From Breznakia blatticola (lineage in GTDB: Bacteria > Bacillota_I > Bacilli_A > Erysipelotrichales > Erysipelotrichaceae), in NCBI RefSeq assembly GCF_004365815.1, contig NZ_SODD01000041.1, positions 1 through 21,513 of the forward strand: a DNA stretch of 21,513 bases, given 5' to 3'. The stretch's first letter is position 1. Each line of letters begins with the position of its first letter. Both the position numbers and the translations under genes were made by a program. Positions 1-21,513 of this stretch are shown piece after piece. The notes under the pieces are model-generated. The model searched no databases and was not told the origin of the DNA. It saw nothing but the letters and a program-made list of their open reading frames with translations.

Positions 1-93
1 TTACCATCACAAGAAATGCTTTAAAGACACATAAATTATTCAGTACTTATCAGTGATTTATCGAGACTTGGTATGCACTGGTTGAATTAAGCC
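1..93. repeat. Left arm of a perfect terminal inverted repeat (93 bp; 95 bp if tt at 94-95 is included)
   Basis: I reverse-complemented 1-93 base by base and it equals 21421-21513 with 0 mismatches and 0 indels. The arm begins at window base 1. It carries the last 17 codons plus TGA (3-56) of an ORF entering from outside the window (...TITRNALKTHKLFSTYQ*). Confidence 0.97.
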
Positions 94-131
94 TTAAGGA
101 TTATAAATTCTACTTACTACTAATTTACGTT

Positions 132-1526
132 TTGGCTGCTACAGCTTTTGTTGCTCAAACATTCATTTCAAAGCTAATCCCTTTGAAATATATAGCTGTA
201 GTTGCTGTTATACTACTTTTGTTAGGACTAGCATTTTGGTTCTTATTATTCAGCAAAAGAATTAATAAATTTAATCGAGCGTTCGGTGTGTTTCTTACAG
301 TTGTACTTGCAATAAGTATGGTTGTTGGAAATGTATATTTGTATTCAACATATAGTGCACTAGGCAGTATAGCAAGTGATGATGATAAAGAAATTGGTAT
401 TTCAATTGTTGTATTAAAAGATTCAAGGTATAAAACAATAGAAGATTTAGATGGACAACCATTTGGTCGAGCAACTAACTTGCCTGATACAAATGTTGAT
501 AAAGTACAAGAAGAGTTATCACAAACATATAGTGACACTCTTGAAATGAAAAATTACGAAAGTGTAAATGATTTTGCTGATGCTCTATACAACAAAGAAG
601 TTGAAGCTATCTTACTAAATGAAGGTAGTCGAGGTTTGTTTGATGAAAAGCATCCTAAATTCAACGAAGAAACTAGAGTGATTAAAACATTTAAGTATAC
701 AGAAGAAGCAGTTAATATTGCTAAACCAGTAGATGTGACAAAAGATCCATTTGTAATGTATGTGTCAGGTATTGATACATACGGATCAGTGCAAACGGTG
801 TCACGTACAGATGTAAATATGCTATTAGCAGTTAATCCAAATACACATCAAATATTGATTGTAAGTATCCCACGTGACTATTATGTGGCACAAACTTGTC
901 AAGGGGATGCTTTGGATAAACTTACACACACTGGAATCTTTGGTATAGATTGTAGTGTGAGTACACTAGAAAATTTCTTTGGTATGGACATTAACTATTA
1001 TGGTCGTGTCAATTTTTCAAGTTTAGTTGATATTGTTGATGCTTTAGGTGGTATCACAGTTAATTCGCCAGTTGCTTTTAGTGGTGGTGAATATTCGTTT
1101 GTTGCAGGGGAAAATCATATTAATGGAAATGAAGCGTTGGCTTTTGTACGTGAAAGGTATTCACTTAGTGGTGGAGATAACGATCGTGTGAAAAACCAAG
1201 CTCGAGTAATTTCGGGAATTATAGATAAAGCAACATCACCATCTATATTAACTGGATATGTTGGATTAATGAATTCACTATCAAATTCATTTCAACTTAA
1301 TATGACAAGTGATGAACTATCTTCACTTGTACAAATGCAATTGAATGATATGAAAGGTTGGAAAATCAACCAAGTAAGTGTTAGCGGATCAGGGGAAACA
1401 AACTGGAGTCCGGCAAATGGATTCAATTCGTATGTAATGCGACCAAATATGGACACAGTCGAATACGCAAAAGAACTAATACAAAAAGTGTTGAATGGGG
1501 AAATCATTGACGAAAGTCAATTATAG
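132..1526 (+). CDS. LytR-CpsA-Psr (LCP) family glycopolymer ligase (CpsA/Wzg-like), apparently missing its native 5' end
   Basis: LCP blocks are visible in the translation: FVMYVSGIDTYG, SRTDVNMLLAVNP, IVSIPRDYYV, DKLTHTGIFG, NGNEALAFVRERYSLSGGDNDRVKNQ. TM helices precede an extracytoplasmic domain, as in streptococcal CpsA. The start is unresolved. TTG132 has no SD and lies inside a hydrophobic helix. The frame is open back to 57 with no ATG, GTG or TTG, and TGA 54-56 lies inside the repeat. Confidence 0.85.
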   Translation: MAATAFVAQTFISKLIPLKYIAVVAVILLLLGLAFWFLLFSKRINKFNRAFGVFLTVVLAISMVVGNVYLYSTYSALGSIASDDDKEIGISIVVLKDSRYKTIEDLDGQPFGRATNLPDTNVDKVQEELSQTYSDTLEMKNYESVNDFADALYNKEVEAILLNEGSRGLFDEKHPKFNEETRVIKTFKYTEEAVNIAKPVDVTKDPFVMYVSGIDTYGSVQTVSRTDVNMLLAVNPNTHQILIVSIPRDYYVAQTCQGDALDKLTHTGIFGIDCSVSTLENFFGMDINYYGRVNFSSLVDIVDALGGITVNSPVAFSGGEYSFVAGENHINGNEALAFVRERYSLSGGDNDRVKNQARVISGIIDKATSPSILTGYVGLMNSLSNSFQLNMTSDELSSLVQMQLNDMKGWKINQVSVSGSGETNWSPANGFNSYVMRPNMDTVEYAKELIQKVLNGEIIDESQL

Positions 1527-1588
1527 AAAATACTCATTCATTATAATTGATATTAAGTAATGATTAATTATGCTTAATTTTATAAAGC

Positions 1589-1658
1589 AAAAGGATAGAT
1601 GAATATCAAGTTCATGTAGTAGTGAAAATGATACAAAACTATCCTTTTATCTTTTTTT
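1589..1658. terminator. Bidirectional hairpin terminator between the convergent LCP and Nudix-fusion genes
   Basis: aaaaggatag (1589-1598) pairs with ctatcctttt (1639-1648). An inner stem atgaa/ttcat sits in the loop. A T-run follows at 1652-1658, and an A-run on the other side serves the minus-strand gene. Confidence 0.55.
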
Positions 1659-1726
1659 GACATAGATGAATAATAAATTATTGTAGTTGCTTAATATTCT
1701 TGTAACAAAAAGAATGATTACTGTTA

Positions 1727-3871
1727 TTATTTATTATTCTTTAGTGCTTTTAATTTTGCATATGCGGCAAGGGTGAAACCATCAACAAGAACATCTGAAT
1801 GAATTAGTTTTTCGAATTCTGAAATAGATAGTATTTCAAAATCAATTATTCCTTCATGTTTCTCTAATTTTTTTGGAAAAGTATTCGTTTTACAATAAAA
1901 AACATTCGCTGCGTTATTTGTCACGCCGGTATCTGGGTATATTAAACCAAGATTTAAAATGGATTCTTGAGTGATACATATTCCAAGTTCTTCGTATACT
2001 TCTTTGGTTAAATTATCAATATTTGATAAACCACTTTCGTTAAAACCGCGAACAAATGCGTACTGATAGTCTCTGATACTATGTCTAAATTGTTTGAGTA
2101 TGATTAGACGGTTTTCAAATTCAACTATAGCTACACTTCCTGGATTTGATAATGAAAGCATTCTCTCATAAGCAAAAGGTCTACCATTTTCATCATAAAC
2201 CATATCAACTACAAGTGTATGAAATGGACTATGATAAATAACACCAATTTTTAGATTATTTTCAGTCTCAAAAGTTACTATTTTCTTGTAGTCACGCTCG
2301 ATATTAAAAATTCCAATATTTTTGAATAATTCTGGATTTTGGGCAACTAGCACCTCGTACTCCATCCATTCTTTAGATTTTGAATAATCATTAGATCTAA
2401 ATAATGATTTGTTATTCTTTGTTTGATCTTGTTTGAATCGAATGTTAATTTTCCTTATATGAAATCTAACGAAATCAACTACTATTTCAACAATGTTTCT
2501 TATACTTTCGATCACATCGGGTATTTTTGTAAAAGACTGAATAATCCATAAGAAAAATGCAGAAATTAATATAGTAAAGAATGATGACCAAAAAGCACTT
2601 TCAGTAAGGATCAGGTTTCCTAGAAATTGAAATGAATTGGCTAATTCGTCGGCGATAATCTCAAATTCTACTACCAATATGAAAGTTAATATAGAGAGAA
2701 GTATAAAAAAAATGAATTGAATTAATACTTGTAAAAGCCAAGAGAAGTTTGATATGAGTTTTGAAATAGGATTTTCCCAATCATATATTTTGTTTACATT
2801 CTTTCTGATTCGATATGCAGTATCCCAATGAATAGTATTGATATTTGGTTTATTTTTTTTAAACAAACGTTTTGTCGTAGCAGGTATCGAATAGTTTAAA
2901 TAATGCCAATCGATTTCATTACAATTGAATTTATCTCCTAACTCTACATGATTATTATAGTAGTCGTCTAATTTATTGCTAAAATCATTAATAAAAGTAA
3001 TATCTTTTATTGATTGATATGGTTTCAATAGATTTCCTATATTTTCTTGTACAGTATAATTGTATACCATATCTATGATAGATTTCGCCATAATTTTACT
3101 TGTTCCAGTTTGGTCAGTATTTAAAAGACTAATCCAGCTTGATCGATTATTTATGTGGTTTTGAGGTATTTTTGATCTTGCCTTCTTTAAAAGTACTATT
3201 GCATCTGACACTTCTTCAGGATAGTTAGTTTTAATTTGGTTTGAAAGCACAAGGTGTTCAACGTAGAACAAAAGTTCTGAGAAAGTAGTTAGTTTATTTG
3301 AATTTGGTACATATGTATTTAAATTTAAACTAATAGATATTATCATTTTTAGGTAGTTTATTATGTACTCCAATTTGCGTTCACGAGGAGTTTTTATTTT
3401 TGGGTTTCCGCGAGATGTGCGTTCGCGTTTAAGTTCGTCTTCCAATTCCTCAAAGCTATTATAAGTTAGTGCTTTCTTGATTTTTCTAAGTTCATTTATA
3501 TCGTTTGGAGAAACTGGTATTCCAGAAAATATAAAGGGGAAAATACTACATTGATCACCTTTTTCTAAATGTTCAATATTTCTATTTACGACTTCTTGGA
3601 TGTATTCTGAAGGTGAAGAATAATTATAATTTGCTACTTTGAGAACACCTAACTGAAATAACTGGAAAACATGCTTATAACTTGCTTCATCATGGAGCAA
3701 ACTTAAAAAAGATTGTGAGTCAGTTAACTGGTTTAGACTTAATACAATACAGTGTCCTTTATTAACGATTTCTTCATACATTTTTTCATGAGCTAGTATA
3801 ATTTCTTTAGCTGAGGAGTTTCTAACTGAGTCTAACTCAAATAGATAAATATTTTTACTAGATTTATTCAT
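1727..3871 (-). CDS. Fusion protein: ~375-aa N-terminal domain of unknown function + two-TM hairpin + C-terminal Nudix hydrolase domain (ADP-ribose/NDP-sugar pyrophosphatase-like)
   Basis: The 732-codon ORF is trimmed to ATG at 3871 (MNKSSKNIYLFELD...), preceded by AAGGAG with 7-nt spacing. The 23-residue Nudix box GFNESGLSNIDNLTKEVYEELGI (about 1979-2047) fits GX5EX7REUXEEXGU in exact length, with E16/E19/E20 kept, R15->K and E7->L. Upstream beta-strand region (GSVAIVEFENRLIILKQFR) and the C-terminal DGFTLAAYAKL resemble NudF/NudK-type enzymes. Two hydrophobic helices, WLLQVLIQFIFFILLSILTFILVV and AFWSSFFTILISAFFLWIIQSF, map to about 2533-2740. Confidence 0.75.
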   Translation of the reverse strand: MNKSSKNIYLFELDSVRNSSAKEIILAHEKMYEEIVNKGHCIVLSLNQLTDSQSFLSLLHDEASYKHVFQLFQLGVLKVANYNYSSPSEYIQEVVNRNIEHLEKGDQCSIFPFIFSGIPVSPNDINELRKIKKALTYNSFEELEDELKRERTSRGNPKIKTPRERKLEYIINYLKMIISISLNLNTYVPNSNKLTTFSELLFYVEHLVLSNQIKTNYPEEVSDAIVLLKKARSKIPQNHINNRSSWISLLNTDQTGTSKIMAKSIIDMVYNYTVQENIGNLLKPYQSIKDITFINDFSNKLDDYYNNHVELGDKFNCNEIDWHYLNYSIPATTKRLFKKNKPNINTIHWDTAYRIRKNVNKIYDWENPISKLISNFSWLLQVLIQFIFFILLSILTFILVVEFEIIADELANSFQFLGNLILTESAFWSSFFTILISAFFLWIIQSFTKIPDVIESIRNIVEIVVDFVRFHIRKINIRFKQDQTKNNKSLFRSNDYSKSKEWMEYEVLVAQNPELFKNIGIFNIERDYKKIVTFETENNLKIGVIYHSPFHTLVVDMVYDENGRPFAYERMLSLSNPGSVAIVEFENRLIILKQFRHSIRDYQYAFVRGFNESGLSNIDNLTKEVYEELGICITQESILNLGLIYPDTGVTNNAANVFYCKTNTFPKKLEKHEGIIDFEILSISEFEKLIHSDVLVDGFTLAAYAKLKALKNNK

Positions 3872-4045
3872 GGTATATCTCCTTTTTTCATCATACATTC
3901 TATATAGAAAATTACCAAAATGCAAAGGTATAAGTTGATGTTTTATGTTAGTGATATAATAAATCTCTTGAATCTTATTTCTACCTTGTCTAAAAACATA
4001 GTATTTTACCCTGTGATTGTATAGATATTATTATTCAGATAAATC

Positions 4046-4073
4046 TTGATAAATATAGAACATAAGTTATAAT
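4046..4073 (+). promoter_or_regulatory. Sigma-A-type promoter candidate for galE
   Basis: TTGATA (4046-4051), a 16-nt spacer, then TATAAT (4068-4073), about 65 nt upstream of galE. Confidence 0.5.
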
Positions 4074-4091
4074 TTAGGAGTCTAGATACTG

Positions 4092-4140
4092 AAAGGAGTG
4101 GCATGAAATGATACGATTGATTTCATGTGATATTATATGA
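4092..4140 (+). promoter_or_regulatory. galE leader: SD, 2-codon and 10-codon upstream ORFs, and a hairpin; the uORF stop overlaps the galE ATG
   Basis: AAAGGAG lies at 4092-4098. ATG 4103 gives MK*. ATG 4108 (9 nt after GGAG) gives MIRLISCDII* with TGA at 4138-4140, overlapping the galE ATG at 4137-4139 (ATATGA). catgaaat (4102-4109) pairs with atttcatg (4120-4127). galE itself has no SD in the 15 nt before its ATG. Confidence 0.35.
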
Positions 4141-5144
4141 AAATTTTAGTTACAGGTGGGTTAGGGTTTATCGGAAGTCATACATGTGTTGAATTATTGA
4201 ATAATGGATACGATGTAGTGGTTATTGATAACTTATATAACTCAAAAATTGAAGTAAAAGACTATATTAAAGAAATTACAGGAAAAGACATTGTTTTCTA
4301 TGAAGCGGATGTTTGTGATAAACAAGCGGTTGATAAAATCTTCGCAGAAAATGACATTGATGCAGTGATTCACTTTGCAGCGTACAAAGCAGTTGGAGAA
4401 TCTGTGCAAAAACCAATTGAATACTATCAAAACAACTTGGTCAGTACACTTACCCTTTGTGATGTTATGCGTAATCATGGTTGTAAGAACTTTGTATTCA
4501 GTTCTAGTGCAACGGTTTATGGTGATCCAGAAAGAGTGCCTATTGATGAAAAATGTGCTGTAGGGGCTACTACAAACCCATACGGGACTACAAAAGTTAT
4601 GATAGAACAAATTCTTAGAGATATTTATATTTCTGATAATGAGTGGAATGTTATCTTATTAAGATACTTTAATCCAATTGGTGCACACAATAGCGGATTG
4701 ATTGGTGAAAACCCTGTTGGTATTCCAAATAACATCATGCCTTACATCGCTATGGTGGCTAATAAAGAATTACCTGAACTTCACGTTTTTGGTGATGACT
4801 ATGATACACCTGATGGAACAGGAGTACGTGACTATATTCATGTGGTTGACTTAGCTAAAGGTCATGTAAAAGCCATGGATAAATTATCAAAAGATAAAGT
4901 TGGTGTTGATGCAATCAACTTAGGAACTGGAAACGGTTATAGTGTATTACAATTAGTTAAAGCATTTGAAGAAAGTAACGGTGTTGAAGTACCATATGTT
5001 ATTGATCCACGTAGAGCTGGTGATATTGCTACATGTTATGCGGCAACAGATAAGGCTAGAGAAGTACTTGGATGGGTTGCAGAAAAAGATATTAATGACA
5101 TGATGAAAGATTCATGGATGTTTATTCAAAACAGAAATAAGTAG
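4137..5144 (+). CDS. galE: UDP-glucose 4-epimerase
   Basis: 335 aa. N-terminal Rossmann motif MKILVTGGLGFIGSH, catalytic region SSSATVYG and YGTTK (YxxxK), and full-length GalE-like collinearity (HFAAYKAVGES, RYFNPIGAH, RDYIHVVDLA). Confidence 0.93.
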   Translation: MKILVTGGLGFIGSHTCVELLNNGYDVVVIDNLYNSKIEVKDYIKEITGKDIVFYEADVCDKQAVDKIFAENDIDAVIHFAAYKAVGESVQKPIEYYQNNLVSTLTLCDVMRNHGCKNFVFSSSATVYGDPERVPIDEKCAVGATTNPYGTTKVMIEQILRDIYISDNEWNVILLRYFNPIGAHNSGLIGENPVGIPNNIMPYIAMVANKELPELHVFGDDYDTPDGTGVRDYIHVVDLAKGHVKAMDKLSKDKVGVDAINLGTGNGYSVLQLVKAFEESNGVEVPYVIDPRRAGDIATCYAATDKAREVLGWVAEKDINDMMKDSWMFIQNRNK

Positions 5145-5192
5145 ACATAAAAATGGGAAAAAATGAGGCTGTAACGAATACAGTCACTAAAT

Positions 5193-5235
5193 AAAAAATG
5201 GAGCTGACCACATATAGTGGATAGCTCCATTTTTT
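5193..5235. terminator. Strong hairpin terminator inside the IS left end (also positioned to terminate galE transcripts)
   Basis: aaaaaatggagct (5193-5205) pairs with agctccatttttt (5223-5235), a 13-bp stem. An inner ccac/gtgg stem is present. The A-run/T-run flanks make it bidirectional. Confidence 0.6.
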
Positions 5236-5249
5236 GGTAAAATATGTTT

Positions 5250-6801
5250 ATGAATACACAAACAAATGAGACTCACAAATATACCCTTCCTCAGCAAGAA
5301 AAGTATACCACTAGATTTATCAATTAAAATTGATAAATCTAGTGATAAGCTTCAATGAAGTGATGGAAGGAATCAATCTAGCAAAGTACCTTGTGAAACA
5401 ACACAAAGGTAGACAAGAATATAATCCCTTCACGATGATAAAAGTTGTCCTATTTACTTATATGAATCAAATCTATTCTTTACGCAAAATTGAAAAAGCT
5501 ATACGAACGGACATACGCTTTATGTGGTTAGCCCAGGAAGAACAACCATCACATATGGCAATTAAACGCTTTATCGATGAAAAGTTAAGATATAATATCA
5601 AGAATATTTATCATGATGTATTAAATCGTATTATTGAACTTGATGAAGTAGATACATCGACTATATACATCGATGGAACAAAACTACAAGCAAATGCTAG
5701 AAAACTTAGTTTTGTGTGGAAAAAACTGCTATAAAAACTAGAGATAAAATATTTGCGAAGTTGAATGAAGATGTACATAAAATACAGGAGTACTTACCTA
5801 TGATACAGGAGAAGGATGTTTGGACATTGGAAGATGTTGATGAAATTAGAAGTCAATAAATTTCATTGTCTGAAAAGGATGGTATCACACACGTCTATGG
5901 CAAGGGAAAGAGAAAAACACCTATTCAACGCATCTATGATACATTAGATAAATACTATATAACTCTAGAAAGTTATCTTGAGCGTATAAGAATTTGCGGG
6001 GATCACAATAGTTATGGCAAGACGGATAACGATGCAACAACGATGCATTTTAAGGAAGATTATTATATGAAAACTGGTGTGTTTCATCCAGCATATAATA
6101 TACAAATTGGAGTGTCAGATGAATATATTATGCATGCAACGGTTCATCAAGATCGTTCTGATTAAAAAACATTCATTCCATTTTTAGAAGAATACAAGAA
6201 ATATCGTGGAATTAACGATTTAAAGAATGTCGTTGCGGATGCAGGGTATGGAAGTTATGACAATTAGTTTTACTGCTTAGAAAACAAGTTGAATAGTTAT
6301 ATTAAATACAACACCTATCGCATAGAGAAAACAGCAAAGTTTAAGAAGAAAATCTACAACAAAAATAACTTCGAAAGAAATGCGTGTGGTGAATACATCT
6401 GTCCAGAAGGAAAATTTTTCCACTATGCATTTGAAACGGAGGATAAAAGAAGCAAATATTATCGTATTAATGAATACTATGAAAGCGAGTGTGATGGATG
6501 TCTTGTGAAAGAGGAATGCACCAAAGCGAAAGGTAATAGAAAAATCACACATAATCCAGTACTACAAGAATTTCAAAAGAATGCAAAAACACTATTGGAT
6601 AGTGAAGATGCTATTCGTTTTAGAACGCAAAGATCCATACAAGTTGAGGGTGCGTTCGGAGTAATCGAACAAGACTTCGGTTATGAGAGAGTGCAACGAA
6701 TAGGGCTAAAAAACGTTAGAATGGAAGTTCTCTTGGTTTGTCTTGGATATAATCTAAAAAAATATCATAATAAGAAGCATAGACCGAACATATTAAACTA
6801 A
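5250..6801 (+). pseudogene. IS1182-family DDE transposase, multiply disrupted
   Basis: The fragments carry family-typical blocks: PLDLSIKI, GRQEYNPFTMIKVVLFTYMNQIYSLRKIEKAIRTDIRFMWLA, IYIDGTKLQANA, NVVADAGYGSYDN, and RSIQVEGAFGVIEQDFGYERVQRIGLKNV...LGYNLKKY. The frame is broken by +1 shifts near 5308 and 5344, a shift in the A6 run at 5720-5725, and in-frame stops TAA 5857-5859, TAA 6163-6165 and TAG 6265-6267. Confidence 0.85.
5309..5344. repeat. 36-bp perfect palindrome (17-bp arms, 2-nt centre) in the 5' coding part of the transposase
   Basis: cactagatttatcaatt (5309-5325), aa, then aattgataaatctagtg (5328-5344). I checked the arms by reverse complementation. Confidence 0.9.
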
Positions 6802-6840
6802 ACATTTTCAATCAAAATCTACATAGATGTTTTCATAATG

Positions 6841-6870
6841 CCTTAAATCCTGATATTTAAGGTGTTTTTT
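6841..6870 (+). terminator. Rho-independent terminator after the transposase ORF, inside the IS right end
   Basis: ccttaaat (6841-6848) pairs with atttaagg (6855-6862) across a 6-nt loop, followed by a T6 run at 6865-6870. Confidence 0.55.
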
Positions 6871-6960
6871 AATATTTTCGTCAAAGCTACAAAAAAAGGG
6901 GGCTGATAAACCCCATAGATCATAAACTAATCTATTTCGTTACAACCCCATTTTTATCTT

Positions 6961-6992
6961 TACGTATTGAAATACGTATAATATGATATAAT
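6961..6992 (+). promoter_or_regulatory. Promoter candidate for the 7007-21345 operon, with a palindromic operator-like site
   Basis: Extended -10 TGATATAAT at 6984-6992. TTGAAA at 6967-6972 is only 14 nt upstream of the -10 hexamer. An inverted repeat tacgtatt/aatacgta (6961-6978, 8-bp arms, 2-nt centre) covers the -35 position. It starts 4 nt after the inferred IS end. Confidence 0.45.
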
Positions 6993-11411: not shown

Positions 11412-11774
11412 ATGATACCATCAGATTTACAGATAGTTTTCGTTACAACTAGTTTATTTACATTTGTATACATTTTAGGACAAATACGAAAACATAAAAC
11501 AAATATTAATGATTCAATCATTTGGATTCTATGGAGTGTGGGATTACTTATTATGAGCATTTTCCCAAAACTTGCAATGAGTCTTGCAACACTATTAGGT
11601 TTTCAATCAACTAGTAATTTTATAATTGTTGTGTTTATTTTCTTCATTTACATTATTGTATTCTCACAGGTTAATAAAATTTCTTTGTTAGAAGAAAAGA
11701 ATAAACAACTTGCTCAAAAATGCAGCATATATGCTTATGAGCTTGAGAAAGAAAAATTAAAAGGAAAAGAATAA
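11412..11774 (+). CDS. Small membrane protein, DUF2304-like (typical partner of the preceding GT2 type)
   Basis: 120 aa. Hydrophobic helices are followed by the LLGFQSTSNF motif and a C-terminal charged coiled segment LLEEKNKQLAQK...ELEKEK, which matches my memory of the DUF2304 pattern. Confidence 0.65.
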   Translation: MIPSDLQIVFVTTSLFTFVYILGQIRKHKTNINDSIIWILWSVGLLIMSIFPKLAMSLATLLGFQSTSNFIIVVFIFFIYIIVFSQVNKISLLEEKNKQLAQKCSIYAYELEKEKLKGKE

Positions 11775-13978
11775 TGTTTGAAGTAATAAAATTAACGTTA
11801 ATAACAGTTATACTATTTTTTTCATCGAAAGCGTTTGGTGAACTTTTAAATATGAAATGGAAGAATCCATTTTCAAGTGTTTTAGGAGTTGGATATTTAG
11901 CTAATTTAGCTTGTTTTTTTGTTATTACATTACCAGTAATGATTTTTAAACTCTCAACACAATATCTCTTTGTGTTGGGACTTTTGTATTTGTGTATTTT
12001 AATCCTTGCAATTTATAAAACTATACAAAAAAAAGTTTTATTTCGATTCGATAAAATTGACATAGTTATACTAAGTTGTTCAGTTGTGTTACTTGGTTTT
12101 TACGGATTTGTGCTAGATTTCGGTTTGATTGAAACTTATGATTCGATATTTTATAGTAGTTTGACAAACAATGCGTCAAATTCACATGCTATATCTGTAG
12201 TGGATCCGTATACGGGATTGTCCAATTTGCAAAATTTCTACAAATATATGTCATACTACTATTTAGCTAGTTTTTATGGAGTGCTTTTTCAACTCAAACA
12301 CGCATACTTGGTTCTAGTTTGGTCTTTTACGTTTATGAACTTCATATTGTTCTTTAATACAGCATTCACTGTATGCCGAATTTCGAAGAACAAAGTGGTA
12401 AATAATATAATAAGTGTGTTTTATTTGTCACTGATATTGAGCATGTTTCGCGCTCCATTCAATGCGTTGCACTTAACAACGTTTGTTGTTTCAATATATG
12501 TGTTTAGATTTACTTTTCGTTTATTTAAGAAGAATTATGACATTCTTCCATATTTAATCATTACAATTATTGCATGTATTTCATTCACATCAACATCATT
12601 ATTTACCATTTTGCCTTTTGTTTTGGTGCTGTTAATTACAAATGCATGCATAAAAGATAGAATTCCTTATAAATATTTATACTATTTAACAATTCCGGTG
12701 TTGGTACTCGGTTTCTTGTATGTGTATGAATCACTGAAGAATCCTTTTGTACTAGTTGCGGCAATTGCTATCTTGATTTGCTTTAGTCTTTTATTTCTAT
12801 GGAAGCCGTTTGATACTATCGTTAGATATGGAAGCTTATTTTTAGGAATTATAGTATTTACTGTCTTTTTAATCCCTGATAAATTACCAATTCAAAATCT
12901 TATTTCTAACAACTTTATGCAATCAACAGCTATCAGTAAAAATGAATCAATTCCAGAAAATGAATCAGGAGATATAATTGAAGATTGTTTGGGTATTCAT
13001 TCGCTGAAGGTAAAGAACAATGATTCAATGTATGACTATAAAAAAGGTTTAGGGTCTTCGATAAACTATATGATAGGAGATGGCGATTTAAAAATTACTA
13101 CAATAATGATTACTTTCTCTCATTCTATTCCAAAGTATGGAGGAATGTTATTTTTGTTGATTTACGGATTTATCAAAAGAAGAAAATCATATGCCTTTGT
13201 TTCATATGTAGTATACTTATTATTGTTTAATAATCCGCTAGTTGCTAATGGTGTGAATTTACTTACTTTTGGACTGAGTCAAAGGATTGTACTGTTTTTT
13301 AATACGTATTATGCTATTTTGGGAGTTAAGTACTTTTTTGATTACTTTATCGATTATGTGTGGACTAAGTATAAGATTTCAGTTAGTTTACAAAGTGTTT
13401 TACGCTTTACATTTTATAGTTTAACGATATGTTTGATTACTTCAATATGTACATATGGAATAAATATTATGCCAAAAAGTTATACAAATTATAATTTCTT
13501 ATACAAAGTTCCGAATAGAATCGTAGAGCTCGAGGATAAAATATATGAACTTAATCTAGATAATGGTAAAGATTATAAGGAACGCTACTTTTTCACAGAA
13601 AGTGCATTCAATGTGAAATTGCTAGATCGAAGAGGTGAGAGCAAGGTTACTGTAATGAACAGCAAGGAATATATGAATTACTTCGGGAACCGAGATGTTA
13701 TCACAGATAAAACAATAATTAATGACTATTTCGAAAGTGAAGGTTTGTATAGTTTGAACTCAGTTGTAAATAAATGCAATTTGATGGAATTAAATGAAGA
13801 GCAAATAAAGCCAAATTGCGTTTGTTCTATAAAGAATATTGTTAAAAATTATGGTGTTGATTATATAGTTACAAAAGCTCCAAAAAATAGTGTATTTAAA
13901 GAAAGTTTACAAGATGATTTTTTAATAGTTTGGGAAAATGATGATTACATAATATTAAGAAATAAGGAGAGTGTATAG
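11774..13978 (+). CDS. Large polytopic membrane protein with a C-terminal soluble domain; candidate GT-C-type extracytoplasmic glycosyltransferase or polymerase
   Basis: 734 aa with many hydrophobic segments through about residue 560, then a hydrophilic ~170-aa tail. Coupled to the upstream gene by TAATG. Paralogous in N- and C-terminal features to 18587-20455. No family motif that I can name with certainty. Confidence 0.55.
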   Translation: MFEVIKLTLITVILFFSSKAFGELLNMKWKNPFSSVLGVGYLANLACFFVITLPVMIFKLSTQYLFVLGLLYLCILILAIYKTIQKKVLFRFDKIDIVILSCSVVLLGFYGFVLDFGLIETYDSIFYSSLTNNASNSHAISVVDPYTGLSNLQNFYKYMSYYYLASFYGVLFQLKHAYLVLVWSFTFMNFILFFNTAFTVCRISKNKVVNNIISVFYLSLILSMFRAPFNALHLTTFVVSIYVFRFTFRLFKKNYDILPYLIITIIACISFTSTSLFTILPFVLVLLITNACIKDRIPYKYLYYLTIPVLVLGFLYVYESLKNPFVLVAAIAILICFSLLFLWKPFDTIVRYGSLFLGIIVFTVFLIPDKLPIQNLISNNFMQSTAISKNESIPENESGDIIEDCLGIHSLKVKNNDSMYDYKKGLGSSINYMIGDGDLKITTIMITFSHSIPKYGGMLFLLIYGFIKRRKSYAFVSYVVYLLLFNNPLVANGVNLLTFGLSQRIVLFFNTYYAILGVKYFFDYFIDYVWTKYKISVSLQSVLRFTFYSLTICLITSICTYGINIMPKSYTNYNFLYKVPNRIVELEDKIYELNLDNGKDYKERYFFTESAFNVKLLDRRGESKVTVMNSKEYMNYFGNRDVITDKTIINDYFESEGLYSLNSVVNKCNLMELNEEQIKPNCVCSIKNIVKNYGVDYIVTKAPKNSVFKESLQDDFLIVWENDDYIILRNKESV

Positions 13979-15815: not shown

Positions 15816-16586
15816 ATGAATATTGAAGTACTCATGTCGACAATGAAACGTTCATCTATAAATGAATTGAAGCTAAAGGAGAAAAATATTTCGACTCCCC
15901 TGTTAGTTGTGAATCAACTCGCTGACTCAGATTCTCACGTGATAGAGGATGAATGTAGATTCTTTTCCTATACCGAAAAAGGATTATCAAGATCAAGAAA
16001 CATACTGCTTAAAAATGCAAAAGGTGATGTTGGGATAATTACTGATGATGATATTACATTTATTGCAGAATATAAAACGATTTTATGTAACGCATATGAA
16101 AAGCATCCTGAGGCTGGTATTATTACATTCAATCTAAAAATAGGAGATGATACAAAAGGCTGGGACAAAGAGTTTACACATACTTTTTGGTCGTTAATGA
16201 GTGTAGCATCCTGTCAAATAAGTATAAAACCATCAGTAATAAGAAATTTAGATATTCATTTTAATGAGAGCTTTGGTTTAGGAGCAAGTTTTAAAAGTGG
16301 TGAAGAAAATCTTTTTCTGAATGATTGTCGAAAAAAAGGTGTAACTATTATTCATGTTCCAATTACATTGTGTTCTCATCCACACGAGGATACAACTGGA
16401 GAACTATGGAGTGCTGATTTAGTAAAGTCAAAAGGTGCACTTTCAACTGCTTTATTAGGTAAGAAACATGTTTTATTTCTATTGTATTTTATATTGGTAA
16501 AGCATAAAGAGTATAAAAAAACAATGAAAATAAAGGAGTTTTACAGAAATTATATGAATGGTGTGCATGAATATAGGAGTAGATAA
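15816..16586 (+). CDS. Probable GT-A-like glycosyltransferase
   Basis: 256 aa with a GIITDDDITF (DxD) motif and a GEENLFLNDCRKKG block. GGAG is 5 nt upstream. The family assignment is tentative. Confidence 0.5.
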   Translation: MNIEVLMSTMKRSSINELKLKEKNISTPLLVVNQLADSDSHVIEDECRFFSYTEKGLSRSRNILLKNAKGDVGIITDDDITFIAEYKTILCNAYEKHPEAGIITFNLKIGDDTKGWDKEFTHTFWSLMSVASCQISIKPSVIRNLDIHFNESFGLGASFKSGEENLFLNDCRKKGVTIIHVPITLCSHPHEDTTGELWSADLVKSKGALSTALLGKKHVLFLLYFILVKHKEYKKTMKIKEFYRNYMNGVHEYRSR

Positions 16587-17659
16587 TGAGCAAATGTAAG
16601 GTAGCAATATTCCAGTATGATCTCGGAGTTGGTGGAATTCAAAAATCATTGATTAATTTATTAAATGCTATTGATGAAAAGAAATATGATATTGATTTGT
16701 TTTTGTTTTCGAAAGAAGATTTTTATGAAACTAGTTTACCAAAATTTGTTACAGTTAATTATATACATTCCTTTCCAAGTTGGATGAAAATTTTGCCTTT
16801 TAGAATAGCGAAACGATTTGCGCATAAATTAAATGACACAATCTATGATGTTGCGATTGATTTTAATTCATATCAAAATGAATGTGCTGCATTTGCATTG
16901 CTTTGTAATGCGAATAGGCATATTATTTGGTGTCATAATGATGTAAAAATTAAACAAAAGAATGAGGCAAGATATCGATATTTATGGCTGATGATGAAAT
17001 CGAAGTTTTACTTTTTTGATAATATCTGTATTGTTTCCAAGGGAGCAAAAAAAAGCTTTGTGGAAGTAACAGGAATTGAGGAAAAAAAAGTACACGTATT
17101 ACCTAATATAATTAATACAGATGAAATTTTTCAATATAAGAATCAAGTTAATTCAATAGAAGTTGATAATAATAAATACAATTTAATCACAGTTGGGCGG
17201 ATATCACATCAAAAAGGACTAGATATTTTAGTTGAACTGTTTGGAAAAGTTGTTGAGAAAAGAAAGGATATACACTTATATATTGTCGGAGATGGTGACG
17301 ATAAGAAAAAATTGATTGAAGAAGTACAAAAATTAAAACTTAATAATTTTGTTACATTTACTGGATATTTGAAAAATCCATTTAGTTTAATGAATAATAT
17401 GGATGGATTTATATTAACATCAAGATATGAAGGTCAAGGAATGGTATTGTTAGAAGCAAAAAGTCTTGGTCTTGATGTTTTTATTCCAAAGCATTTAGAA
17501 CAATACGTCGATAACATCTCTGGACAAGTGGATTTAATTAATTCCTTACTTAATGCGTCTAAAAATGCAATAAAACGCTATGATGATTTGTCTACGTATA
17601 ATAATTCGATAATTGAGAAATTTGATCAATTGTGTACTGAGGAGACCAACTATGAATGA
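16586..17659 (+). CDS. GT4 (GT-B, group 1) glycosyltransferase
   Basis: ITVGRISHQKGLDILV, LYIVGDGDDKKKL and SRYEGQGMVLLEAKSLG (EX7E) motifs. TAATG overlap with the upstream gene. Confidence 0.85.
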   Translation: MSKCKVAIFQYDLGVGGIQKSLINLLNAIDEKKYDIDLFLFSKEDFYETSLPKFVTVNYIHSFPSWMKILPFRIAKRFAHKLNDTIYDVAIDFNSYQNECAAFALLCNANRHIIWCHNDVKIKQKNEARYRYLWLMMKSKFYFFDNICIVSKGAKKSFVEVTGIEEKKVHVLPNIINTDEIFQYKNQVNSIEVDNNKYNLITVGRISHQKGLDILVELFGKVVEKRKDIHLYIVGDGDDKKKLIEEVQKLKLNNFVTFTGYLKNPFSLMNNMDGFILTSRYEGQGMVLLEAKSLGLDVFIPKHLEQYVDNISGQVDLINSLLNASKNAIKRYDDLSTYNNSIIEKFDQLCTEETNYE

Positions 17660-18587
17660 TGTATCTGTAATTATTCCGGTTTACAATGCTGAATTATACA
17701 TTGCTAGATGTGTTGATTCATTATTAAATCAAAAAACACAATATTCATATGAAATAATTTGCGTTGATGACGGATCAACAGATAATAGTGCACAAATATT
17801 AATGAAATATAATGGCATGATACGTGTGATTTTGAGTGAAAACAATGGACCAGGACATGCACGAAATTTAGCTGTGAATAACTCAAATAGTACTTATCTA
17901 ATGTTTGTAGATGCAGATGATTATGTGAGTGATGATTTTATAGAAATGCATATGACAGCATTGAAAGAAACTAACTCAGATATATGTATTTCGGATTTTT
18001 ATCGTGTCACTCAAGATAAAAAAAAATATGTTTCAAAAGGAAAATATAAAATATATCTAAAAGGTCAATTTCAGGAAGTATTGTTAATGGAATTTCATTC
18101 TGTTAATAAAGCAATTAAAAGAAGTGTTTTCATTAATTATCCTGAGAATATTTTTTTTGAAGATATGGTAGCCATGTCTGAATCAATTTTGAATGCGAAC
18201 AAGATTGTGAAAATTGAGAAAGCTGGTTATTATTATAATTGTGTTGAAAATTCTACAACGAATACTTTAAGTGACAAAATATATGATATTTATTACGCCA
18301 CAATGATGATGGAACCTAGTTTTGTAAGAAATGGTTATAGTCAAGAAATTGAGTATCTATTCGTTAATGGAATTCTTGTGGATTTATGTATTAAACTTAT
18401 AAAAGCAAAAGGAATCAAAGCTAAACAAGAAGTATATGAGTACTTAAATGAAGTTAGCATAAAATACCCAAGGTGGTATCGAAATAAATATGTAAAAGAT
18501 ACTAGATTTATGAAAAGGATATACTTATTCTTATTAAGAAAACATCTGTTTTTAATCGTTATGCTAGTTTTTCGGAGGAAAAAATAA
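17652..18587 (+). CDS. GT2 family glycosyltransferase
   Basis: VSVIIPVYNAELYIARCVDSLLNQ, IICVDDGSTDNS and FVDADDY motifs. I chose ATG 17652 (GGAG upstream, ATGAATGA overlap) over 17613. Confidence 0.85.
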   Translation: MNDVSVIIPVYNAELYIARCVDSLLNQKTQYSYEIICVDDGSTDNSAQILMKYNGMIRVILSENNGPGHARNLAVNNSNSTYLMFVDADDYVSDDFIEMHMTALKETNSDICISDFYRVTQDKKKYVSKGKYKIYLKGQFQEVLLMEFHSVNKAIKRSVFINYPENIFFEDMVAMSESILNANKIVKIEKAGYYYNCVENSTTNTLSDKIYDIYYATMMMEPSFVRNGYSQEIEYLFVNGILVDLCIKLIKAKGIKAKQEVYEYLNEVSIKYPRWYRNKYVKDTRFMKRIYLFLLRKHLFLIVMLVFRRKK

Positions 18588-20455
18588 TGGAACTATTTTT
18601 TATTATTTATGCATTGTTAATGTTCTTTATCTCTAATGGATTAGGTAAATTAATTCTAAAAAAGGAAAGTAAGATATATCCGTTCCGTTCGTTATTAGGG
18701 TTTTGCCTGTTCATTTCCACACTACAATTGGGATATTATCCTATGCAGTATTTTCAGGTATCTATTAACTTTGTTTACATTTGGACGATGATAGTCTTTA
18801 TTGTTTCATTTGTTATTGGTGTACGATTTTTTTCGAAAGATGACTTTAAAATCTTTAAAAGATGGGAATTTTACTTCTTGTTTTTCTTAGTATTCTTTTT
18901 TGTGAAAATTTTGCCAATAAATGAAGCTGGTGATGATTGGTTTTATATGCCATTAATCATGGACAACGTTGATGCATCAAGAATAAATTCAATAGATCCA
19001 AGAACTGGGTGGAATTTAGATATTGGGAGTATATGGAGTTATCAAGGATACTATCTATTGGCAACATGTATATATAAGATTCAAAGTTTATTTGATACTT
19101 CTGTAAATGCAATTTTTGTTTCATTCCGTTCCACTTTCTCTTTGTTAATGATTCTTTTTTCTTCAATTGTATTGTCCGAAATACCGAATATATTGAAGAT
19201 AAAAAAACGTTCTATTAATATTATTATCCAATTACTATCAATTTACTTGGTTGGTTTCTTAGAATGGTCACACATTTATTGGGGTTCTTTTGCATCATTC
19301 ACTACATTTTTTCCTTTAATGGTGTTTTCAATAAATGATTATGTAAAAGTTCCAACACAAAGAAAGGCAATAATTATTGCAATAATAAATGGAGCAATAA
19401 TATCACTGTTCTCATCAGCGTTATTCTTAACTGCATTTTTAATGTATTCCTTTTTTACATGCAGCATATTCAGGAGAAATGTACGTTTTATAGATTATTA
19501 TATAATGCTTATTCCATCATTGATATATCTTTCATTATTTGTGGAAAAACCATATCTTATTCTTTTAGTGGTTCTTTTTTTCTATATTGCAAGCAAGTTT
19601 TTGTCGACTAAAATTGATCTATTTTTTAATAAATATGGAATGTATTTTGTAATAGCAATTCCAATACTAATAGTTTTAATTACTCCTATTCTTGGTATGA
19701 AATATACATGGTCATTGTATCGGTTAGGTTATATATATTTGCTATTTAATATTAGTATTTCCATTTTTATTATGTATGAAATAATGAAGAAGAAAAGAAC
19801 TATAGAACCACTTTTATTAATGTTTGTAGTATATGTGATTACTTTTTTTAATCCGCTAGTTTGTCCATTTATTTCAAATTACTTTACAAGTGATCAAGTC
19901 TATTATAGATTGTTTTACATAACAAAAAATCCATTAGTCATTGCTTTTATTTTTAAATATATTTATGTGCATTACTTTAAAAATAAAAATGCACAAATTG
20001 TATACAGTATATTTATATCTTCGTTAATGTGTTACTATTTACTTGTTTTTCTTCAAGGAGTAAATTTCAATGTCGAATTCTCAAATAGTTATAATTATAT
20101 TTTAAGAGAAGATGATGATGAGTTAGCTGTTGGTTCTTTTCTAGCAATAGAAAAATTTGACTGCGACACGTTGATATGGAGTGATTATATACAACCACGA
20201 ATGTTTAATCAAAAAGTGAAGGCTCGGGTTTCACGATACGCAGAAACTGATCAAGGTATTGAAGTGATTGATCAGTTTCTGCATTCAGAAGAAGAGTTAC
20301 CAACTGAAAAATTTATTGATAGTAAAAACGCAATTCATAATTCTGGAGTTTCTTTATTGATTACAAGAAACAATTCAATAATTAAGGAGAGAGTTACTTT
20401 AATATCAGATATAATATATGAGAATGATTCCTATATAGTTTATAAAGTGAGGTAA
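18587..20455 (+). CDS. Second large polytopic membrane protein, paralogous in architecture to 11774-13978
   Basis: 622 aa. Its N-terminus FFISNGLGKLILKKESKIYPFRSLLG compares with FFSSKAFGELLNMKWKNPFSSVLG in the other protein. Its C-terminus IIYENDSYIVYKVR compares with IVWENDDYIILRNK. Many TM segments precede a ~140-aa hydrophilic tail. TAATG coupling. Confidence 0.55.
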   Translation: MELFFIIYALLMFFISNGLGKLILKKESKIYPFRSLLGFCLFISTLQLGYYPMQYFQVSINFVYIWTMIVFIVSFVIGVRFFSKDDFKIFKRWEFYFLFFLVFFFVKILPINEAGDDWFYMPLIMDNVDASRINSIDPRTGWNLDIGSIWSYQGYYLLATCIYKIQSLFDTSVNAIFVSFRSTFSLLMILFSSIVLSEIPNILKIKKRSINIIIQLLSIYLVGFLEWSHIYWGSFASFTTFFPLMVFSINDYVKVPTQRKAIIIAIINGAIISLFSSALFLTAFLMYSFFTCSIFRRNVRFIDYYIMLIPSLIYLSLFVEKPYLILLVVLFFYIASKFLSTKIDLFFNKYGMYFVIAIPILIVLITPILGMKYTWSLYRLGYIYLLFNISISIFIMYEIMKKKRTIEPLLLMFVVYVITFFNPLVCPFISNYFTSDQVYYRLFYITKNPLVIAFIFKYIYVHYFKNKNAQIVYSIFISSLMCYYLLVFLQGVNFNVEFSNSYNYILREDDDELAVGSFLAIEKFDCDTLIWSDYIQPRMFNQKVKARVSRYAETDQGIEVIDQFLHSEEELPTEKFIDSKNAIHNSGVSLLITRNNSIIKERVTLISDIIYENDSYIVYKVR

Positions 20456-20457
20456 AA

Positions 20458-21345
20458 ATGAGAAGACATGCATACTTAATCATGGCACATAACAATTTCT
20501 CTATATTAAAAAGATTAATTTCTATTTTAGATGATGAAAGAAACGATATCTTTATTCATATTGATGCAAAAATTGAGTGTTTTGACTCCTCTGAATATGC
20601 CGGTATTGCAAAAAGGTCAAAAGTACAATTCATTGATAGAATTCCTGTATATTGGGGAGATTATTCACAAATACAGTGTGAGTATAATCTACTTCGCGCT
20701 GCGAACGGAGATTATGAATATTATCATCTTCTCTCAGGAACTGATTTGCCAATAAAAACACAAGATGAGATACACAGTTTTTTTAATCAATTGAGTGGCA
20801 AAAGCTTAATTCAATTTGTATCAAGGTCATATGCAGAGAAAACTAGTGCTTACTATAGACTAAAGCGTTATAAGTTCTTTCAAAAATATGTCAAGTCAAA
20901 TAAAGTGTTACCCAAATTTTGTGCTAATTTATTTCAACACATATTTATGCCGCTACAGACTATTTTCGGTGTTGATCGTACAAAAAAGAAAAATATATCA
21001 ATCGGTTTTGGTGCAAACTGGTTTAGCTTATATAAGGATGATTATAAGCTAGTTATCGAAAAACAGTGCTTTGTTGAAGAAAATTTCAAACATACATTGT
21101 GTGCAGATGAATTATTCATTCAGACTATATTGTTGACATTTGGAAATGTTGACGTAACTTTTGATGAAGACTTTAATGGCAAATCGCATGGAAGATATAT
21201 AGATTGGAATAGAGGAAATCCATATATTTTTCGAACAGAGGATTATGATTTGCTAATTAATAGTCAGTGTTTATTTGCTAGAAAATTTGATGAAAATATA
21301 GATTTTAATATTATTAATAAAATCTATGATAATATAAAAAAATAA
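20458..21345 (+). CDS. GT14-like (Core-2/I-branching enzyme family) glycosyltransferase
   Basis: AYLIMAHNNFSILKRLISILDDERNDIFIHIDAK, YHLLSGTDLPIK and GANWFSL blocks resemble bacterial Branch-domain proteins, from memory. Confidence 0.65.
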   Translation: MRRHAYLIMAHNNFSILKRLISILDDERNDIFIHIDAKIECFDSSEYAGIAKRSKVQFIDRIPVYWGDYSQIQCEYNLLRAANGDYEYYHLLSGTDLPIKTQDEIHSFFNQLSGKSLIQFVSRSYAEKTSAYYRLKRYKFFQKYVKSNKVLPKFCANLFQHIFMPLQTIFGVDRTKKKNISIGFGANWFSLYKDDYKLVIEKQCFVEENFKHTLCADELFIQTILLTFGNVDVTFDEDFNGKSHGRYIDWNRGNPYIFRTEDYDLLINSQCLFARKFDENIDFNIINKIYDNIKK

Positions 21346-21371: not shown

Positions 21372-21402
21372 TATAATGTTATCATTATCAAGTTAAGGAG
21401 GG
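21372..21402 (+). promoter_or_regulatory. -10-like element and strong SD preceding the orphan start codon
   Basis: TATG-TATAAT, with the hexamer at 21372-21377 and no good -35. AAGGAGGG at 21395-21402 lies 3 nt before ATG 21406, the same spacing style as the wzx RBS (GAGGGAATTATG). Confidence 0.4.
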
Positions 21403-21405
21403 AAT

Positions 21406-21456
21406 ATGAGAATTAAAAAAGGCTTAATTCAACCAGTGCATACCAAGTCTCGATAA
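21406..21456 (+). pseudogene. Orphan gene start: ATG + 4 native codons (MRIKK), then read-through into the right repeat arm to TAA
   Basis: ATG AGA ATT AAA AAA | GGC TTA ATT CAA CCA GTG CAT ACC AAG TCT CGA TAA. Codons 6-16 are repeat sequence. It reads as a real translation start cut off at 21420/21421. Confidence 0.5.
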
Positions 21457-21513
21457 ATCACTGATAAGTACTGAATAATTTATGTGTCTTTAAAGCATTT
21501 CTTGTGATGGTAA
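21421..21513. repeat. Right arm of the perfect terminal inverted repeat
   Basis: Exact reverse complement of 1-93, ending on the last base of the window. The inner terminus reads GGCTTAATTCAACC... going outward. Confidence 0.97.

Follow-up and report, generated by a model that had tools for sequence, protein, structure and literature searches.

A LytR-CpsA-Psr gene of Breznakia blatticola has lost its 5′ end where it abuts an inverted repeat

The stretch of DNA analyzed here (the window) is one whole contig, 21,513 nucleotides (nt) long, of the draft genome of Breznakia blatticola (NZ_SODD01000041.1). Its two ends carry the same sequence in opposite orientations, and directly inside the left copy lies a gene of the LytR-CpsA-Psr (LCP) family for which the public databases give two different start codons. 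The locus thus raises the question of whether this LCP gene is complete, and of what the repeat beside it is. Our analysis shows that the gene is truncated at its 5′ end where it abuts a repeat, called R below. It further suggests that R is longer than the contig displays and brackets the locus in inverted copies (R–locus–R′), and that R is most likely a mobile element. Taken as a whole, we regard this reading as likely. The gene disruption is of an ordinary kind, with R probably being the mobile element responsible.

The LCP frame is open from nucleotides 57 to 1526 and is closed upstream by a TGA inside the left arm of the repeat, as had been noted in an earlier reading of the window from its letters alone (the sequence-only reading). 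Comparison with relatives locates the break. The closest LCP proteins (P0001, 96% identical; P0243, present in several Breznakia genomes, 98.3%; and P0246, 98.5%) are all 484 amino acids (aa) long and begin with MNKTRKWF followed by KDYKFYLLLIY, and the window matches KDYKFYLLLIY from nucleotide 96. The gene has 94–96% nucleotide identity to five Logan loci (L001–L005), to L009 (Breznakia sp. GCA_029893755.1) and to L010, and in blastn the similarity to these seven runs from nucleotides 94–95 to the LCP stop codon. The TT at 94–95 is common to the arm and the native gene, so that the breakpoint lies between 93/94 and 95/96, an ambiguity of 2 nt whose range includes the edge of the repeat at 95/96. 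In the relatives, a gene for an M29 aminopeptidase lies upstream of the LCP gene, and the 111-nt spacer between the two contains a TATAAT box and, as ribosome-binding site, GAGGAAAA; the LCP gene itself starts ATG AAT AAA ACA AGA AAA TGG TTT and continues AAG GAT. The window lacks the first eight codons as well as the ribosome-binding site, the promoter, and the conserved M29 neighbor upstream; arm sequence stands in their place, and 476 codons of the gene remain intact. The claims that the gene is beheaded and that the break coincides with the repeat boundary therefore hold: alignment to full-length relatives places the missing codons and upstream signals at that boundary, with similarity starting at 94–95 and the inverted repeat ending at 95. 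The M29 gene of B. blatticola (TDW09101.1) is on a separate contig of 9,155 nt. A 24-mer conserved upstream of the relatives' LCP ATG had 0 matches in a scan of genome contigs, a collection whose coverage of this genome is not established.

The head missing here is present in every homologue aligned. In each of the 122, 14 or more residues (median 25) precede the alignment column of TTG132, the first candidate start in the window, and these include a basic cytoplasmic tail (mean net charge +4.9) leading into a complete first transmembrane helix; the window instead has nonhomologous arm codons and a stop. The sequence-only reading had allowed that close homologues starting naturally at the equivalent of TTG132 would speak against a truncation, and none of the 122 starts near there.

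What remains upstream of the gene body provides neither a start codon with a ribosome-binding site nor a promoter, the two features by which a functional gene was judged. TTG132 is the first in-frame ATG, GTG, or TTG of the LCP frame, there being none among the codons from 57 to 131, and it lacks a Shine-Dalgarno sequence, both as originally stated: the calculated pairing is +2.9 kcal/mol, vs. −5.8 to −11.6 kcal/mol for most real gene starts in the window. Apart from the second annotated TTG, at 183, all other in-frame candidates, ATT, ATC, and CTG included, pair at −3.3 kcal/mol or more weakly. No promoter-like site was found on the plus strand in nucleotides 1–131. The two public protein models, of 464 and 447 aa, thus appear to be gene-caller fallbacks and not natural starts. 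The translation from TTG132 is identical to the GenBank protein TDW13940.1. Neither GenBank nor RefSeq marks this gene as partial or as a pseudogene, and the TTG starts that they assign are different and nonhomologous.

It is this loss of promoter, ribosome-binding site, and start codon that constitutes the firm defect, and not membrane topology, on which the sequence-only reading had laid much weight. In a Kyte-Doolittle scan, the full-length LCP model has three transmembrane-like segments (aa 15–33, 41–59, and 70–88) and the products from TTG132 or TTG183 have two, and TTG132 does lie inside the first hydrophobic segment. The segment counts therefore stand, but the argument drawn from them was overstated, given that the catalytic domain could still face outside in a two-helix product. 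Specifically, the loop between the second and third segments, KRINKFNR, is strongly basic, and by the positive-inside rule the third segment could still export the catalytic domain.

Behind the break the gene is well preserved. It scores 132.2 bits against PF03816 (cut-off 24.6) and 109 bits against TIGR00350 (cut-off 62.3), which places it in the LCP family, and residues 95–469, the extracellular part, align to the Cps2A crystal chain 2xxp with an E value of 2e-65. The blocks conserved with respect to 2xxp are SGIDTYG..VSRxDVN, PRDxYV, DKLTHxGI, FVRERYSL, and GDxDRxxNQ, which are taken to hold the Arg and Asp residues that bind pyrophosphate and Mg in Cps2A. The earlier impression that the rest of the gene, with its Arg and Asp blocks, is intact is thereby upheld. 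Against NF051849, the Cps2A equivalog model, the score is 346.9 bits with a cut-off of 650, the alignment spanning model positions 14–477 with the N terminus absent; the protein is thus an LCP family member and not a Cps2A equivalog. It shares with Cps2A/Wzg (CpsA) of Streptococcus pneumoniae, an LCP transferase that attaches glycopolymer to peptidoglycan, the order of N-terminal membrane region, accessory domain, and LCP domain, and the LCP gene of the relatives is likewise the first gene of a polysaccharide locus. The window gene differs from Cps2A/Wzg in its missing head, ribosome-binding site, and promoter and in retaining only two complete transmembrane segments.

The ratio of nonsynonymous to synonymous substitution rates (dN/dS) between the window gene and its relatives is 0.03–0.06, a mark of purifying selection. 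Private to the window branch are 22 synonymous and 4 conservative nonsynonymous changes (I84V, K119R, T150S, and M470I), whereas neutrality over this branch predicts about 78 nonsynonymous changes, which leaves room for no more than about 10% of the branch without constraint. These private changes support the proposal that the truncation is recent. Judged from substitutions, either the truncation would be recent or the LCP gene would still be in use.

The nature of the arm can be approached from its length. The ends of the window form a perfect 95-nt inverted repeat without a mismatch, a match seen in 0 of 100 shuffles, and each of the six reading frames of the arm contains a stop codon. The identical 95 nt at each contig end mean that R is present in at least two copies, and in a second assembly, made with k = 31, the graph branches at the inner edge of the arm. 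The recipe of the Joint Genome Institute (JGI) for isolates runs SPAdes with -k 25,55,95 and discards contigs of <1 kb (PMC11320900), and the terminal repeat is exactly as long as the largest k of this recipe. It follows that the arm is probably the tip of a longer repeat that the assembly left unresolved. One k-mer vertex, entered in opposite orientations at both ends of an edge, implies that the genome reads R–21.3 kb–inverted R, where R spans at least 95 nt. The arm is thus probably a contig-end k-mer overlap with a longer R, inverted copies of which lie on either side of the 21.3-kb polysaccharide locus; the window ends where the contig clips the arm, whose true length may exceed the 95 nt shown. 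Of the 95-nt repeat arm originally described, the perfect repeat and its boundary were correct; the arm itself is the visible tip of something longer and not a defined 95-bp element. In its terminal repeat as long as the largest k, the contig behaves like other contig ends from SPAdes de Bruijn graphs, and the k = 31 contig likewise stops k − 1 nt into the arm. The familiar case, however, is a direct terminal repeat, which denotes a circular contig, whereas here the overlap is inverted and denotes R–unique segment–inverted R.

The k = 31 contig also bears on the junction itself. Logan contig SRR8436184_177 is 100% identical to window positions 66–6836 and begins exactly 30 nt (k − 1) inside the arm, so that the sole branch is located beyond the boundary between arm and LCP gene, toward the arm, and none lies on the LCP side. 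No path from an intact head (ATGAATAAAACAAGAAAATGG) to the body (TTTAAGGATTATAAA) was present above the assembler threshold in those reads. The junction of arm and LCP gene therefore exists in the DNA that was sequenced and did not arise by mis-joining, with both assemblies probably deriving from one read set, SRR8436184. Searches with the arm gave nothing meaningful in blastn against plasmids and phages and no match in Rfam at gathering or E-value thresholds; folding yielded no notable structure, and no internal copy of the arm was found in the rest of the window, where the Smith-Waterman score was within the range of shuffles.

The right end of the window mirrors the left. There, a ribosome-binding site, AAGGAGGG, whose Shine-Dalgarno pairing of −11.6 kcal/mol is stronger than at any other site in the window, precedes a few codons that run into the arm, and the body of this orphan gene is not in the window; a scan of viral contigs with the orphan head had 0 matches. 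At the left junction, then, only the body of a gene is present, and at the right junction only the head of one; with a truncated gene on each side, neither arm is native to the sequence beside it. A mobile or recombinogenic repeat in two inverted copies would give both junctions, either through two insertions or through one insertion followed by an inversion. The idea that the MRIKK orphan is itself the missing LCP head, the contig being circular with a 190-nt palindrome inserted, was rejected: the relatives' head is MNKTRKWF, and a join of 21418 to 96 is out of frame.

We propose the following explanation. R, in at least two inverted copies, would bracket the locus, and one copy, most likely a mobile element, would have inserted between the head and the body of the LCP gene; alternatively, a rearrangement between two R copies may have carried the LCP head away. 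The second copy would have cut an unrelated gene at the right end, sparing its ribosome-binding site and four to five codons. The LCP gene would then have become a pseudogene very recently or, at most, would retain weak expression, through transcription running on from R together with leaderless or internal initiation. This arrangement resembles the capsule and exopolysaccharide genes inactivated by insertion sequences (IS), and the IS-flanked polysaccharide loci, of Firmicutes, where a repeat of at least two copies likewise abuts a truncated gene at each end and the event is clonal and recent. It differs in that no transposase, terminal repeats, or target duplication of R is in view, in that R matches nothing in the collections searched, and in that the IS1182-like element in the window is unrelated to the arm.

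Several observations weigh against this explanation. R is seen over 95 nt only, and its outer end and any transposase or target-site duplication would lie beyond the window. Exact-match scans with 22–46-mers of the arm found 0 matches in viral, metagenome, and species-representative genome collections, and the 17-aa peptide encoded by the sole frame that enters from the left contig end, up to the TGA in the arm, had no match when used as a tandem query against a database of 5.8 billion protein sequences. If R were an IS-type element of >1 kb, then its own contig should pass the 1-kb filter and the inner 23-mer of the arm would probably have been found, provided that the collection includes this genome, which is not established. 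The JGI origin of the assembly, on which the argument from k depends, is inferred from product names in the IMG style and from the agreement with k = 95, not from the record. Finally, the undecayed gene body is equally compatible with continued function and with a recent event.

This last point carries the most serious competitor, in which the truncated gene still works: it would be read out from R, start at TTG132, TTG183, or a noncanonical codon, and yield a two-helix protein that exports its catalytic domain, so that the public models would be essentially right. The absence of decay and the strong constraint on the gene's own branch speak for it, as does the basic loop, which under the positive-inside rule would hold the third segment in the in-to-out orientation. 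Many LCP enzymes, TagT/U/V for example, work with a single helix, and PDB chains of TagT/U/V are among the structure matches of the window protein. However, no candidate start has a Shine-Dalgarno sequence although those of other genes in the window are mostly strong, the arm has no promoter-like site facing the gene, and such a start is used by none of the 122 homologues; a very recent event explains the conservation equally well. We therefore consider a working gene rather unlikely. That the junction is an artefact of assembly or library preparation, with chimeric reads or a mis-join concealing an LCP gene that lies intact beside M29, is suggested by the coincidence of repeat length and assembler k and by the apparent origin of both assemblies from read set SRR8436184. 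Yet two assemblers (k = 95 and k = 31) agree exactly through the junction, the k = 31 contig enters the arm for 30 nt without a branch on the LCP side, and reads joining an intact head to the body are absent or below threshold. Moreover, the k-mer overlap accounts for the length of the arm but not for the junction, and M29 is on another contig, which leaves an artefact very improbable.

Two further readings give the repeat a function of its own. The 21.3-kb locus could be a programmed invertible or mobile cassette, with the R copies as recombination sites or as the ends of a composite transposon that controls or spreads the polysaccharide locus. Inverted copies of one sequence do bracket the whole locus, the SPAdes contig stops in the repeat at both ends (as would be expected if R exceeds the library insert size or if both orientations coexist), and the strong ribosome-binding site and ATG of the right-end orphan point outward. 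But the stop codons in all frames of the arm mean that neither the LCP gene nor the right-hand gene is rebuilt across R in either orientation, no invertase or recombinase family was found among the 20 window open reading frames (ORFs) scanned, which include only a decayed IS1182-like transposase, and truncation of the genes at the two inner junctions seems accidental. A cassette is accordingly improbable, and it is with the same small likelihood that inversion, or movement as a composite transposon, would tie the exchange or switching of surface polymers to whether the LCP ligase and the right-end gene are on or off. The perfect terminal inverted repeat and the phage-like size of the contig might also suggest a linear replicon or a virus whose genuine ends are inverted terminal repeats of 95 bp. 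The content is instead that of a chromosomal glycan locus (LCP, epimerase, Alg14/Alg13-like, TagF-like, flippase, and many GT2/GT4 proteins) with a decayed transposase; no replication, terminal-protein, or structural genes are present in the window, the LCP gene is an orthologue of the chromosomal gene beside M29 in relatives, the repeat length equals k, and there was no phage, plasmid, or viral match. We give this last reading almost no credence. Truncation of the LCP gene by R, probably a mobile element, remains the explanation that we favor, and readings that make the locus an invertible or transposable cassette have little support.

The LCP gene in this type-strain genome, which GenBank and RefSeq carry as an ordinary coding sequence, should be flagged as 5′-truncated or at least as suspect. 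For screens based on terminal repeats, the contig shows that perfect inverted ends of length k can mimic a complete linear element. B. blatticola is a bacterium of the cockroach gut. Unless an LCP paralogue in the genome compensates, the deposited culture (strain DSM 28867) may have lost the ability to link this polymer to its wall, which would bear on studies of its surface and of host colonization. Apart from these consequences, the event is a routine strain-level gene disruption.

Table 1. Coordinates of the features discussed, in window numbering
Feature	Position	Strand	Remarks
Left arm	1–95	+	Inner 95 nt of repeat R, clipped by the contig end; noncoding; takes the place of LCP head, ribosome-binding site, and promoter
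TGA closing the LCP frame upstream	54–56	+	Inside the arm
LCP (LytR-CpsA-Psr, Cps2A/Wzg-like) gene body	94–1526	+	From ancestral codon 9 of 484 (AAG at 96) to TAG at 1524–1526; intact, conserved
First transmembrane segment	114–170	+	aa 15–33 of full-length numbering; split by the sole canonical start; Kyte-Doolittle, alignment
TTG start in GenBank	132–134	+	TDW13940.1, 464 aa, "LytR family transcriptional attenuator"
TTG start in RefSeq	183–185	+	WP_243833761.1, 447 aa; Shine-Dalgarno pairing −0.3 kcal/mol
Second and third transmembrane segments	192–335 (192–248, 279–335)	+	Linked by the basic loop; Kyte-Doolittle
732-aa ORF	1727–3925	−	Convergent with LCP; unknown function; no Pfam family; weak C-terminal NudE-like match (NCBIfam E 1e-5, far under cut-off)
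Decayed IS1182-like element	~5136–6968		20–22-nt inverted repeats at 5136–5178 and 6936–6968
IS1182-like transposase, three ORFs	5330–5734; 5866–6165; 6289–6801		DUF772; 99-aa piece; DDE_Tnp_1_6
Plus-strand run	7007 onward	+	Alg14/Alg13-like, TagF-like, flippase, GT2/GT4, DUF2304, two large DUF6077-like membrane proteins, Branch-type transferase
Orphan gene head	21396–21456	+	AAGGAGGG, ATG at 21406, about 4–5 codons (MRIKK), then arm; stop at 21454–21456
Right arm	21419–21513	−	Second, inverted copy of the inner 95 nt of R

The 21.3-kb unique segment between the arms is a cell-wall or exopolysaccharide locus, which also encodes a UDP-sugar epimerase and, toward its right end, a glycosyltransferase (20458–21345). 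Similarity to the relatives (L001–L005, L006, and L009) breaks off at the LCP stop codon, give or take a few bases, and the genes downstream are entirely different between strains, which is the usual hypervariability of polysaccharide loci. The five Logan contigs with the closest LCP gene all end exactly 326 nt past it. Between the convergent LCP and 732-aa genes, a stem of 26 nt (77% paired) with a T-run after it, at 1589–1660, is probably a bidirectional terminator.

The decayed IS1182-like remnant was considered as a candidate for R and rejected, its terminal repeats being unlike the arm. Within it, a near-perfect palindrome of 25 + 25 nt (5301–5352; 88% complementary, with a 2-nt spacer) lies over TTG5330, the start of the first transposase fragment. 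The k = 31 Logan contig ends at 6836, inside this element, which suggests that more copies of it exist elsewhere in the genome. Genetic code 4, in which TGA would encode Trp, was also considered and rejected: TGA ends the ORF at 16586–17659, and the organism belongs to the Erysipelotrichaceae. Farther along the plus strand, two paralogous-looking membrane proteins of 734 and 622 aa (11774–13978 and 18587–20455), whose DUF6077 matches are below threshold, may be the polymerases or ligases of the locus.

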